Below are positions 51,801-54,800 of a stretch of 64,000 nt of DNA, one piece after another. The DNA is taken from the NCBI RefSeq assembly GCF_016903815.1, contig NZ_CP069973.1; one strand, given 5' to 3'. Origin of the DNA: Escherichia coli. GTDB taxonomy: Bacteria > Pseudomonadota > Gammaproteobacteria > Enterobacterales > Enterobacteriaceae. A program made the position numbers. Positions within the stretch are counted from its first letter, which is position 1. Each line of letters starts with the position of its first letter.

Positions 51801-54800
51801 AGTGTTTTTTGATATCGAAGCGCTTTCTGATCACACTTCCCCGCTTCCGCACATGCTGCCGCGCCCGGAAACGTTCGCCGTGGCGATGCGTGAATTAGGC
51901 GTTAACCAGGATAAGCACCTGATTGTCTATGACGAAGGTAATCTTTTCTCAGCCCCACGAGCATGGTGGATGCTGCGCACCTTTGGTGTAGAGAAAGTGT
52001 CGATTCTGGGTGGTGGACTTGCAGGCTGGCAGCGTGATGATCTGCTATTTGAAGAAGGCGCAGTAGAGCTGCCGGAAGGAGAGTTTAACGCCGCGTTTAA
52101 TCCTGAAGCCGTGGTGAAAGTAACCGATGTGTTATTGGCAAGCCATGAAAATACGGCGCAAATTATCGATGCCCGCCCGGCTGCACGTTTTAACGCAGAA
52201 GTTGATGAACCTCGCCCAGGTTTACGTCGCGGACATATTCCCGGCGCGTTTAACGTTCCGTGGACAGAACTGGTGCGCGAAGGCGAACTAAAAACGACCG
52301 ATGAACTGGATGCGATATTTTTTGGTCGCGGCGTCAGCTATGACAAACCGATTATCGTCAGCTGCGGCTCTGGTGTAACGGCAGCCGTGGTTTTGTTGGC
52401 ACTCGCGACGCTGGATGTGCCAAACGTGAAACTGTACGACGGCGCATGGAGTGAATGGGGCGCACGAGCAGATTTACCGGTTGAGCCCGTAAAATAAGCT
52501 TTTTACAGGCAATAAAAAACCGCCGAATTTGGCGGTTTTTTATTGCTGGTCTGGTTCGCGGCCTTTCCAGCAGATTGTATTACTGCAAGTGTATCTCGTC
52601 TACTCAATACTCGCTTTATGCATCAACGATGTCAAGTAGATAAAAAAGGATAGATTTTGAATTCATTTAGCTTATCAGTCCGAATTCAGACAAATATAAA
52701 CAAATCCCGCTTAATATTAAAATATACTAACTGATAAAAGATATTAGTTAAACGTGTAACTTCACTTTCTTTAAACAACAAAAAACCGCCAAAATCAGGC
52801 GGTTATTTGTTGCTGGTTTGGTTCGCGGCCTTTCCAGCAGATTGTATTACCGTAGTAATGCAAGCGCGTCTCAGCGGACACAATACTCGCCAGTAACTCT
52901 CTCTTTGTCAAGTAAAAGAGAGTTATTATTGTTCTGTTAGTGTATTATCCACTGCGGACCTTTCCGCCGTCTCGCAAGCGGGCGCTGGCTCAAGGAAAGG
53001 ATGTTCCGCGACCGTTAGGGCAAGCGCGTCTCAGCGCTTGCTATCGCGGCAATATCGCCAGTGGTGCTGTCGTGATGCGGTCTTCGCATGGACCGCACAA
53101 TGAAGATACGGTGCTTTTGTATCGTACTTATTGTTTCTGGTGCGCTGTTAACCGAGGTAAATAATAACCGGAGTCTCTCCGGCAACAATTTATTGGTTGT
53201 TAACAACCTTCAGAACAGCAGGTAAGCCCGAATGCCGCCCTTTGGGGCGGCATATTTTAGATTATCCGGTTCTGTTTAAAGTCACGCAAAAAACCACCCC
53301 AGCGACGTTCATAGAATGGCACAATATGTTCGGTAATAAAGTGGCTAATTCCTTTTTCCCCTTTTTTCACCTGACAAATATCGATGGGTTCATCGCCAGG
53401 TAATGTATCGGTCGCTACACTTCCCGCCGCCTGAATAATTTCTTCGATATCACCATCGGCTTCAATGCCAATAAGTAAATTAGGCTGTGCCTCTTCGTTC
53501 TCTTTAATTGAACAAATAAAAGCACGCTTCACCGGCTTAATAGTTTTAAATAAGGTGGTGAGAGAATCAATCATTTGTGCTGGTGGCTCTGCGACTTCCG
53601 ATAATATCAGCGATTCACCGCCCTCCAGTACTTCCTGGCTGCTCAGCGGATTTCCTTCTTCACCAATCAACAAACTGATTTCACGCGGCATAAATTCTTT
53701 ACCGGTTGGCAGTTTGGCATTAAGGAAGAGCGTTTCGCCAAGGGTCATCTCAAACAATGTGCGAACGGGCATTACGACAAATGCCTGTTCGTCTTCAACC
53801 GCCTGTTGAAGTGCTTCTAACGAGGTGAAAAAAGGAATGACGCTGGTGCCGTCTTCTTTTTCCCAGTGCTGTAAATCAAGCGCGCTATCTTCAACCACAG
53901 CCTCGCCCTGCGCCGCCGTACCAGGCACCCAGACGGTGGATTCCAGTAGCGTACGGAAAAAGGCCGGGCGGTGCGCCGGTTCGGTTGCTGCTTTTTCCAG
54001 CAGATCTTCAAGTTCGTTTTTTGTTTCGGACATAAGAACCACAATTCATTCAACGTTCGGGGCACAAGTGCCTGATGCGCTACGCTTATCAGGCCTACAA
54101 GGGAATCTCAATCTATTGGATTTTCGCAATTTTGTAGGCCAAATAAGACGTTTACGCCGTTAACAGATTAGCAATCGTGCGCACACCTAGCCCGGTCGCG
54201 CCCGCAGACCACTGTTCAACCGGCGATTTACGGTAAGTCGCCGAGCAGTCGATATGCAGCCAGCCTTGCTGATAGTTCTCAACAAAGTGCGACAGGAAGC
54301 CCGCCGCCGTGCTCGCGCCTGCCGGATACGCCGCGCTTCCGGTATTGTTCAGTTCCGCAAAGTTAGACGGCAGCTGGCTGCGGTGGAACTCCGCCAGCGG
54401 CAGACGCCAGAACGGTTCATTCTCCTGCGCGGCACTCGCCAGCAAGCGACCGGCAAGCGCATCGTCAAAACTGAACAGCGCGTGATAATCATTACCCAGC
54501 GCAGTTTTCGCCGCCCCGGTGAGGGTCGCCGCATCAATGATCAGTTCCGGTTTCTGCGCACTGGCATCAATCAGGCCATCGGCCAGCACCAAACGCCCTT
54601 CGGCATCAGTGTTCATCACTTCAACTTTTTTACCGTTGCGATAGGTAATAATATCGCCCAGTTTGAACGCGTTGCCGCTGATCAGGTTATCCGCACAGCA
54701 GAGGAACAGCTTCACGCGCTTGTTCAGTCCGCGCGTAATGGCAAATGCCAGCGCCCCGGTAACCGTTGCCGCGCCGCCCATGTCCGACTTCATCGAGTCC

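Follow-up and report, generated by a model that had tools for sequence, protein, structure and literature searches.

The intergenic region between sseA and sseB in this strain of Escherichia coli holds a terminator-like element in two copies followed by a small hydrophobic open reading frame, and it raises the question of whether these parts form a toxin-antitoxin locus and, if so, which copy keeps the toxin silent. We analyzed the region within a window of 64,000 nucleotides (contig NZ_CP069973.1), in which sseA occupies 51652-52497 on the plus strand and sseB 53257-54033 on the minus strand, as placed by the PGAP annotation of the identical strain 7/2 and by ORF translations. Between positions 52400 and 53400 there are 7 terminator-like sites, against 1.1 +/- 1.2 in shuffles. 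The ryfA RNA, predicted to be the timP mRNA with its 5'UTR, ORF and terminator, lies between the two genes at 52954-53258 on the plus strand, convergent with sseB, and aligns with ryfA (b4440) of K-12. Membership of the ryfA family, proposed in the first-pass annotation, is borne out by a covariance-model search that matched Rfam RF00126 over its full length (314.9 bits against a gathering score of 80; model positions 1-296 of 296; E 9e-88), and the ORF matches the TimP profile NF040796 well above its cutoff (84.2 bits against 45; residues 1-39 on profile positions 1-39 of 40). Comparison of annotations agrees: PGAP annotates timP (WP_004974226.1) at the position equivalent to 53100-53225 in strain 7/2, which is 100% identical, and the curated timR, ryfA and timP of K-12 occupy homologous positions by annotation and alignment.

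The region is thus very probably the chromosomal type I toxin-antitoxin locus timPR (ryfA/ryfB-type) of E. coli, with the sseB-proximal repeat (copy 2) as the cognate TimR and the sseA-proximal repeat (copy 1) as a relic paralogue from a tandem array. The locus itself is ordinary and has already been described and annotated in E. coli. Of the earlier description as a candidate type I system, the type I reading stands and the word candidate was too modest, given that the Salmonella system is experimentally characterized and E. coli loci are routinely annotated. Gene arrangement, family membership and pairing are all present in the window; published evidence of toxicity and of repression concerns only the ortholog in Salmonella. 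The literature on K-12 'ryfB' was considered as a source on this locus and rejected as concerning a different one: RyfB and RyfC of K-12, as Fozo et al. reportedly had it in 2008, are former names of shoB and ohsC. The name RyfB has been applied to TimR homologs only for RyfB1 and RyfB2 of Shigella dysenteriae (PMC5333039; PMC7667032). The K-12 annotation still reads 'putative'.

The 41-residue peptide is encoded exactly by 53100-53225 on the plus strand and is predicted to be an inner-membrane protein, small and toxic, with a signal-like hydrophobic N-terminal segment, MKIRCFCIVLIVSGAL. An alternative in-frame ATG at 53088 would give 45 residues; the start at 53100 is favored because the family profile begins at residue 5 of this longer version. 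Directly behind the stop codon stands the strong terminator noted earlier (53232-53258, plus strand), a hairpin of 9 bp, 7 of them GC pairs, at 53232-53253 followed by ATTTT, which abuts the stop codon of the convergent sseB CDS ending at 53257. The weak ribosome-binding site was also read correctly, as the sole Shine-Dalgarno-like GGA (53090-53092) falls, in the Rfam alignment, inside the 3' arm of the consensus hairpin SL4 (GCGGUC...GACCGC, 53077-53096, plus strand), whose published role is sequestration of the Shine-Dalgarno sequence (PMC11228461). Upstream, the plus-strand 5'UTR contains the hairpin SL2 at 53019-53042 (-17.3 kcal/mol), which is preserved in all four allele types described below, and two halves of a candidate pseudoknot, CGCUGGC in SL1 (52983-52989) and GCCAGUG in the loop of the third Rfam hairpin, SL3 (53057-53063), which could form 7 base pairs including one G-U. 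A 7-bp SL1-SL3 pseudoknot required for translation has been published (PMC11228461), and we infer that the pairing in the window is the same site.

By homology with the Salmonella system, the ryfA transcript would be the mRNA from which the membrane toxin TimP (41 aa) is made and would be born inactive, with its Shine-Dalgarno sequence locked in SL4, until a structural switch forming the SL1-SL3 pseudoknot makes it translatable. The copy-2 TimR, a divergent minus-strand RNA of about 98 nt, would pair through its extreme 5' end with SL2, at the 5' arm and loop, opening that hairpin, destabilizing the pseudoknot and keeping timP untranslated. Copy 1 would be a TimR paralogue whose 5' 'key' is of another type (type D) and does not pair with the resident timP. 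Both sRNAs are probably transcribed, and the translational mechanism probably operates, in the window strain.

A different view of the same RNA is that RyfA in E. coli acts mainly as a non-coding regulator of stress resistance, fimbriae, biofilm and virulence, that TimR/RyfB titrates or degrades another sRNA, and that the ORF is incidental or rarely translated. Oxidative and osmotic stress and virulence phenotypes have been ascribed to the RyfA RNA in UPEC and APEC (PMC13188913; PMC8205139); in the APEC study the peptide was dispensable, the ryfA-timR double mutant behaved as wild type and loss of timR had little effect (PMC13188913). No translation of ryfA1 was detected in Shigella, although that study examined a different, 30-aa ORF prediction (PMC5333039). 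Variable sites in the ORF are distributed 6/3/7 over the three codon positions among the sampled loci, a lack of third-position excess that is uninformative as a coding test and from which coding constraint in the C-terminal half appears weak or confounded by RNA structure. Against this view, the frame is 41 codons in 14 of 14 sampled loci with its first 16 residues invariant, and the ORF scores far above the TimP family cutoff. Salmonella TimP has been detected, is toxic on overexpression and localizes to the inner membrane in a Sec-dependent manner (PMC7667032), and overexpression of RyfA slows growth of E. coli MG1655 (PMC4606813). The RNA could also have a dual function, toxin and regulator roles being compatible. 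We consider a mainly non-coding RyfA unlikely and retain the reading of the transcript as a timP mRNA.

The suspected duplication is present as a 70-nt direct repeat, 52514-52583 and 52781-52850, with 86% identity and a spacing of 267 nt. The nearly identical stretch quoted in the first-pass annotation corresponds to an exact 33-nt match inside it, and the whole repeat unit of about 125 nt comes near the 140 given there. Outside the 70-nt core the copies diverge but keep, in both, the hexamers TGTCAA and ATACTC (plus strand) 17 nt apart, which read on the minus strand as TTGACA-17-GAGTAT; K-12 has the same hexamers and spacing despite a differing spacer sequence. Both copies are predicted minus-strand TimR-type sRNA genes, each combining a promoter-like motif with a conserved hairpin at the center and a terminator; their ends were placed from the promoter-like hexamers, the terminators and the K-12 timR annotation. 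Each element had been described as beginning with a bidirectional terminator hairpin. The hairpin is indeed found at each copy, but since the sRNAs lie on the minus strand it marks the 3' end of each element. No Rfam family matched the TimR copies above threshold; there were only terminator-driven sub-threshold matches to AgrB, the rimP leader, RNAI and others.

Copy 1 (52512-52600, minus strand), identified by homology to K-12 timR, stands at the position of b4811 and is alignable with it, the terminator and the core GGTTCGCGGCCTTTCCAGCAG being identical. Its promoter-like motif (52607-52635, minus strand) comprises a -35 TTGACA (52635 to 52630), a 17-nt spacer and a -10 GAGTAT (52612 to 52607), and its predicted 5' end, GACGAGAUACACUUGCA, derives from the box 52584-52600. 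The copy-1 RNA folds with a z of -4.8, and its 3' hairpin is the putative bidirectional intrinsic terminator at 52509-52546, an inverted repeat with 19-nt arms (95% complementary) that would end sseA on the plus strand and the copy-1 sRNA on the minus strand and that aligns with the 3' end of b4811. Copy 2 (52779-52876, minus strand), a type A, CGCGT-class, RyfB1-like gene with the predicted 5' end CGCUGAGACGCGCUUGC, lies upstream of and divergent to timP, is about 100 nt long and ends at an intrinsic terminator, 52784-52804 scoring as a terminator on both strands. The fold of its RNA (z -3.7) consists of the seed, the central hairpin and the terminator, and its promoter-like motif (52883-52911, minus strand; -35 TTGACA at 52911 to 52906, 17-nt spacer, -10 GAGTAT at 52888 to 52883) and the ryfA promoter region stand back to back. 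Between the copies, an AT-rich spacer (52644-52822, plus strand) matches the Rfam 'IS128 RNA' (RF00125, 153.5 bits against a gathering score of 80; a 30-nt piece of the model is missing); its 3' hairpin is the copy-2 terminator on the other strand, and a search upstream of it in the window found no plus-strand promoter-like site.

Which copy regulates the ORF had been held undecidable from sequence; seed-duplex pairing decides it, with copy 2 cognate and copy 1 not. An exact 17-nt direct repeat, overlooked earlier, joins 52860-52876 at the 5' end of copy 2 to 53020-53036 in the 5' arm and loop of SL2. Because these segments are identical, the minus-strand RNA of copy 2 is perfectly complementary to SL2, and the repeat is the predicted antitoxin/target pairing box, holding the 5-nt variable region CGCGT. 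The TimR site is known to be SL2 (PMC11228461; PMC13000454), and a variable region within the pairing box has been described (PMC5333039). The 5' seed of copy 2 forms 17 contiguous Watson-Crick pairs with 53020-53036 at -38.4 kcal/mol, a value reached by 0 of 500 shuffles; complementarity between the repeat element and the 5' region of the ORF, proposed earlier as a check, is thus present. The copy-1 seed reaches -16.7 to -18.7 kcal/mol against the resident ryfA, with 188 of 500 shuffles as good and a longest Watson-Crick run of 5-7 nt. Copy 1 is therefore a TimR homolog and not the antitoxin of the resident timP. Pairing was judged by 5'-seed duplexes and contiguous-run counts; prediction of full-length RNA-RNA duplexes was uninformative, since by way of long loops -50 to -74 kcal/mol (z only -1 to -3) is attainable for any pair of RNAs. 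The position of the pairing in the window, at the sRNA 5' end and over 60 nt upstream of the ribosome-binding site, agrees with the Salmonella interaction, confirmed there through compensatory mutations (PMC7667032), and with the SL2/pseudoknot mechanism (PMC11228461; PMC13000454).

The specificity extends across alleles. The 5' end of copy 1 pairs 17/17 by Watson-Crick (-32.4 kcal/mol) with the type D timP 5'UTR of another sampled locus, L004, and a matrix of five seeds by four targets is strictly diagonal, with A-A at -37.4, B-B at -38.8, C-C at -36.3 and D-D at -32.4 kcal/mol and off-diagonal values of -15 to -29.5 kcal/mol. In all 13 distinct sampled loci (a fourteenth, a duplicate of the window, was left out), the resident box has a complement of 15-19 nt in at least one of the timR copies, the copy-1 seed, anchored at its box, giving 17 nt. 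A precedent for type specificity exists in Shigella, where RyfB1 lowers RyfA1 and not RyfA2 (PMC5333039). In one sampled locus timR and timP are fused at the pairing box.

Copy 1 is not obviously decayed. Over 17 nt its 5' end matches the type D timP 5'UTR allele perfectly. Most likely copy 1 is what remains, as a relic, of timR-timP modules in a tandem array that lost its type D toxin module by deletion through recombination between repeated spacers. A fuller array is seen in locus L015, in the order timR-D, spacer, timR-B2, timP(D), sseB', spacer, timR-A, timP(A), where the IS128-like spacer is present in two copies and is itself a repeated unit of the array. The spacer of the window matches the first L015 spacer left of 52725 and the second right of 52747, a crossover placement that relies on about 5 informative sites, one of them discordant (52788). 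This suggests that the window lost its type D toxin module by deletion from an array like that of L015, and we infer such a deletion history for the window. The D-type timR occurs in 394 genomes, compared to 39 other E. coli genomes with a D-type timP 5'UTR.

Copy 1 might instead be a functional trans-acting sRNA, either a stand-alone 'immunity' antitoxin against incoming or recombinant type D timP or a regulator of unrelated mRNAs. It retains its promoter-like hexamers at the 17-nt spacing though the spacer sequence has diverged, its terminator and central hairpin are likewise intact (fold z -4.8), and the key is identical in orphan (window, L003) and cognate (L004, L015) contexts. The 86-nt segment that includes the 17-nt key is at least 98.7% identical among the matches listed and at least 95% identical in all 394 carriers, but this conservation is not clearly above neutral, about 2 differences being expected in 86 nt and 0-1 seen. 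The architecture occurs in backgrounds 2.4% apart across the locus (H1 and H2), and the APEC study suggests TimR effects without RyfA (PMC13188913). On the other side, a search for targets of the copy-1 RNA within the 64-kb window found none besides the copy-1 gene itself, and copy 1 lacks 13 nt that, in the other types, fold into a small internal hairpin. A present function for copy 1 therefore seems doubtful to us, and a relic of the array remains the preferred account. That the repeats are mere duplicated terminators, REP-like intergenic repeats or chance similarity devoid of sRNA function is extremely improbable: the hairpin at each copy does also serve plus-strand transcripts (sseA and the IS128 region), but similarity runs at least 50 nt past the hairpins, including the 33-nt exact stretch and the conserved promoter-like hexamers, the matches are all chromosomal and confined to the sseA-sseB locus (5,904 places in 5,425 genomes, 0 on plasmids), and the alignment of copy 1 with curated K-12 timR, together with the covariation of seed and target over four allele types, effectively refutes this reading.

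Among known systems, the closest in kind is timP-timR of Salmonella Typhimurium (formerly ryfA/STnc2070; Andresen et al. 2020, with mechanism papers in 2024 and 2026), which belongs to the same RNA and protein families. The two share a divergent arrangement adjoining sseB, predicted or known pairing of the sRNA 5' end with SL2 over 17-18 nt more than 60 nt upstream of the ribosome-binding site, a Shine-Dalgarno-sequestering SL4 and a known or candidate 7-bp SL1-SL3 pseudoknot, and an ORF start at about +146. The window differs in having two TimR-type genes and not one, in lacking an STM2534-like gene, and in a TimP of 41 aa, compared to 38 aa, with a divergent C-terminus. The K-12 locus (timR b4811, ryfA b4440, timP b4812) is orthologous and has the same two-copy timR architecture, with a mean identity of 91% over an 855-column alignment. 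The K-12 timP box, however, is TGTTT (type B) and its cognate timR is the sseA-proximal copy, whereas the window has the box CGCGT (type A) and a timP-proximal cognate; the timP-proximal copy in K-12 is a type A, non-cognate and unannotated gene. K-12 also keeps a fossil ryfA 5' end of about 34 nt after copy 1 that the window lacks. In Shigella dysenteriae (Fris et al. 2017) the modules RyfA1/RyfB1 and RyfA2/RyfB2 likewise lie in tandem and have a short variable region within their pairing box; two complete modules are present there in place of one module and an extra antitoxin gene. The CGCGT of the window is one of three 'ryfA1-like' variants listed for the Shigella pairs, and the type D box of copy 1 (…GTGTATCTCGTC) is absent from the four variable-region versions listed in that paper (PMC5333039).

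More distant systems, zorO-orzO/zorP-orzP, tisB-istR1, shoB-ohsC and dinQ-agrB, resemble timP/timR in combining a small hydrophobic toxin with a divergent, adjacent, non-overlapping antitoxin sRNA gene. Pairing in the 5'UTR over about 17-20 nt is shared as well, and zorO/zorP share tandem duplication with pair-specific recognition. In contrast to the zorO, tisB, shoB and dinQ systems, timP needs no nucleolytic processing and uses a structural switch and pseudoknot, and TimP carries a Sec-type signal sequence (PMC7667032). Sequence homology with these families is lacking, the sole trace being the terminator-driven sub-threshold AgrB match (29.2 bits against 40).

Across a set of 5,426 genomes, about 1,900 appear to carry a non-cognate extra timR, a count obtained by subtraction between separate searches and not by per-genome cross-tabulation; K-12 was checked directly. 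Strains whose copies differ at 52576 gave one place, and specific queries of 80-86 nt gave one place per genome. An apparent second locus in the identical strain ('2 places') was rejected, being explained by the internal 33-nt exact repeat of the query. The literature searched contained no description of orphan timR copies or of the type D allele, and nothing relevant to timR under 'orphan antitoxin' in type I systems. The population pattern of non-cognate timR is a modest addition to a known locus. More tentatively, the sseA-sseB region may be a recombining 'lock-and-key' array in which unequal recombination shuffles at least 4 coevolving types of TimR seed and timP SL2 (A, B, C and D), so that roughly one third of strains, K-12 among them, are left with a non-cognate TimR whose promoter is intact. 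Such orphans may persist by acting, as immunity against timP of another type or as independent trans regulators, a proposal we regard as speculative.

For the window itself the annotation is settled, with timP for the ORF, ryfA for the RNA around it and predicted timR-type genes for both repeats; no novelty is required. Current annotation shows no timR in the window strain and only one in K-12. Deletion of timR in E. coli needs corresponding care, as many strains hold two copies, the cognate is distal or proximal by allele, and the other copy remains. The four orthogonal sRNA/target pairs offer a natural set for tests of specificity. The presence of two timR copies could bear on the puzzling phenotypes of ryfA and timR mutants in E. 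coli, and if orphan antitoxins do act, their action could explain the apparent RyfA-independent effects of TimR in APEC.

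The intergenic region lies in the order yfhM - sseA - intergenic - sseB - pepB on the E. coli chromosome, as identified from ORF translations, and megablast of 52480-53270 gave matches in 5,425 of 5,426 complete E. coli genomes, all chromosomal and none on a plasmid, with 100% identity in strain 7/2. A full-length ryfA RNA spans 52954-53258 (+; Rfam RF00126, 314.9 bits; gathering score, 80), and the peptide of the 41-codon ORF at 53100-53225 reaches 84.2 bits with the NCBIfam profile NF040796 (toxic_TimP; cutoff 45), the alignment beginning at ATG 53100 rather than the in-frame ATG 53088. 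Curated K-12 genes occupy the homologous positions: timR b4811 (minus strand, directly after sseA), ryfA b4440 and timP b4812. Because of this membership in the ryfA/timP and TimR families and the existing annotation, the locus is already known. The TimR homologs are Shigella RyfB1/RyfB2; the K-12 names RyfB/RyfC are former names of shoB/ohsC at another locus. What the first-pass annotation observed here was confirmed as a whole, and its interpretation as a ryfA-type toxin-antitoxin locus is supported with corrections. The ORF is as it described, a strong terminator follows at 53232-53253, and the weak ribosome-binding site it noted corresponds to a sole SD-like GGA within the 3' arm of a hairpin at 53077-53096. 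Among 14 sampled loci (the window, K-12 and twelve further E. coli loci across megablast architecture classes), every one keeps the ORF at its full 41 codons with the N-terminal 16 residues invariant, but its variable sites show no excess at third positions.

The element reported as duplicated aligns between 52514-52583 and 52781-52850 at 86% identity over 70 nt, 33 consecutive nt of which are identical, and each copy opens, in plus-strand coordinates, with a hairpin scoring as a terminator. Outside this core the sseA-proximal copy 1 (52512-52600, -) and the timP-proximal copy 2 (52779-52876, -) diverge, and both retain a minus-strand TTGACA-17 nt-GAGTAT promoter-like motif (copy 1, -35 at 52635-52630 and -10 at 52612-52607; copy 2, -35 at 52911-52906 and -10 at 52888-52883) with differing sequence between the hexamers. 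The elements are therefore predicted to be minus-strand genes, with the hairpins as their 3' ends. Their predicted RNA folds (z -4.8 for copy 1 and -3.7 for copy 2) share the architecture of annotated K-12 TimR, in which a mostly open 5' end is followed by a conserved central hairpin and then the terminator. Rfam also matched copy 1 below threshold, at 52511-52592 (-; 29.2 bits against 40), to the dinQ type I antitoxin sRNA AgrB; the alignment comes mostly from the terminator and probably does not reflect homology. An Rfam "IS128 RNA" match (52644-52822, +; 153.5 bits; gathering score, 80) is made up of array spacer and the opposite-strand reading of the copy-2 terminator, and no plus-strand promoter-like site was found for it in the window. 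In K-12 (~1500-1740 of the sampled locus), the start of the model holds a fossil ryfA promoter (-10 box) together with ~34 nt from the start of ryfA, both missing from the window, and its 3' hairpin is the proximal timR terminator on the other strand; this family seems to represent the spacer in the timR/timP tandem array. Other RNA elements in the window are the expected K-12-type sroE sRNA (39756-39847, -; 116.6 bits) and iscRS stability element (60491-60600, -; 131.7 bits), and an ALIL pseudoknot (RF01497; 32033-32149, -; 121.5 bits), a frameshift element of IS3-family transposases, showing that another part of the window holds an insertion sequence.

A repeat search also uncovered the 17-nt direct repeat GCAAGCGCGTCTCAGCG, identical at 52860-52876, where the minus-strand RNA of copy 2 is predicted to begin, and at 53020-53036, which makes up the 5' arm and loop of SL2 (53019-53042), the second hairpin in the ryfA 5'UTR. 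The first 17 nt of the copy-2 RNA would therefore form an unbroken Watson-Crick match to SL2, which is the complementarity between repeat element and ORF 5' region that the first-pass annotation had raised. It had considered the regulating copy undecidable from sequence; however, the copy-2 seed duplex reaches -38.4 kcal/mol, with 0/500 shuffled seeds as good, while copy 1 has no comparable pairing with the resident ryfA (-18.7 kcal/mol, 188/500 shuffles as good). In Salmonella, compensatory mutations together with in vitro translation proved that TimR uses 18 nt at its 5' end to pair with a timP 5'UTR site over 60 nt upstream of the RBS (PMC7667032), and the site lies within SL2 (PMC11228461; PMC13000454). 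Given perfect SL2 complementarity and the same geometry as this validated pairing, copy 2 is the predicted cognate TimR of the window strain.

The arrangement is reversed in K-12, where the cognate timR is the sseA-proximal copy: the K-12 timP box, GCAGGTGTTTCACAGCG, pairs over 19-20 nt, G-U pairs included, with the sseA-proximal annotated timR, and the timP-proximal copy, with the same seed as window copy 2, pairs poorly with it. This proximal copy is an unannotated second timR-type gene on the minus strand directly upstream of ryfA (NC_000913.3 ~2653680-2653777; ~1681-1778 of the K-12 locus, L002, with GCAAGCGCGTCTCAGCG at 1762-1778). Four box/seed types occur among the 14 loci: A (CGCGT, window), B (TGTTT, K-12), C (CACCC, O157:H7) and D (…GTGTATCTCGTC, O166:H15). 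Types A-C correspond to ryfA variable-region versions given by Fris et al., whose list does not contain type D (PMC5333039). The unannotated K-12 gene is type A, and its seed gives -27.5 to -28.7 kcal/mol on the K-12 type B 5'UTR versus -36.8 to -38.8 for the annotated distal timR. Pairing five predicted TimR 5' ends with four timP 5'UTRs gave a strictly diagonal matrix (-37.4, -38.8, -36.3 and -32.4 kcal/mol, against -15 to -29.5 off the diagonal). Seed and box thus covary across alleles, and the SL2 hairpin is preserved in all four types through G-U-compatible changes opposite an invariant 3' arm. The key of window copy 1 is of type D and matches type D timP alleles, among them that of O166:H15 JNE21-003, perfectly over 17 nt. 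Experimental precedent for type-specific pairing comes from Shigella, where RyfB1 decreases RyfA1 and not RyfA2 (PMC5333039). In JNE21-003 (L004, 409-867) sseA and the distal timR are separated by an inserted IS200/IS605 tnpA. In 06-00048 (NZ_CP015229.1; L014, 1-1830) a deletion between short direct repeats fused the timR body directly to ryfA at the common type C box, removing both promoters and ryfA SL1, and an IS3-family ISEcB1 lies beside the fusion; the timP there, still annotated, is probably silent.

With 80-86-nt type-specific queries against the 5,426 genomes, the type A timP 5'UTR box was found in ~2,991 genomes (at least 95% identity) and type A timR in 4,540, with ~1,986 and 2,032 for type B and 39 and 394 for type D. 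Some 1,550 K-12-like genomes would thus carry an extra type A timR and ~355 window-like genomes an extra type D timR, both as differences of separate searches rather than per-genome counts, in agreement with the 2,043 genomes of long two-copy architecture (megablast of 52480-53270). The fullest array seen, in E7-1N7 (NZ_CP134805.1; L015, 1100-2560), has three timR (D, B2, A) and two complete timP (D, A) in the order sseA, timR-D, AT-rich spacer, timR-B2, timP(D), an 84-nt sseB pseudogene fragment separating one module from the next, second spacer, timR-A, timP(A), sseB; its type D timP adjoins the non-cognate B2 timR, with the cognate D timR one unit further off. The window equals this array minus the middle module, and the informative sites in its spacer agree with spacer 1 left of 52725 and with spacer 2 right of 52747, a pattern consistent with homologous deletion between the spacers (~5 informative sites, one discordant).

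SL4 is present in the window along with SL2. By analogy with Salmonella (PMC7667032; PMC11228461; PMC13000454), the primary timP mRNA would be translationally inactive with its SD locked in SL4, and a structural switch would activate it through a 7-bp SL1-SL3 pseudoknot, for which CGCUGGC (52983-52989) and GCCAGUG (53057-53063) are candidates. TimR on SL2 would destabilize the pseudoknot and keep the RBS closed; TimP, with its signal-like N-terminus, would insert into the inner membrane and cause leakage. RyfA was taken as a regulatory RNA in APEC and UPEC studies, the former describing peptide-independent effects, and its overexpression slowed MG1655 growth; ryfA is possibly a dual-function RNA. 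The literature searched yielded no account of additional timR copies that are non-cognate, of the type D allele, or of a cognate timR that is distal or proximal depending on the strain. That orphan TimR copies are maintained for function, as immunity to other timP alleles or for independent regulation, seems to us rather unlikely. What is added here refines a known system modestly, at the level of population genetics, and does not amount to a new type of system.
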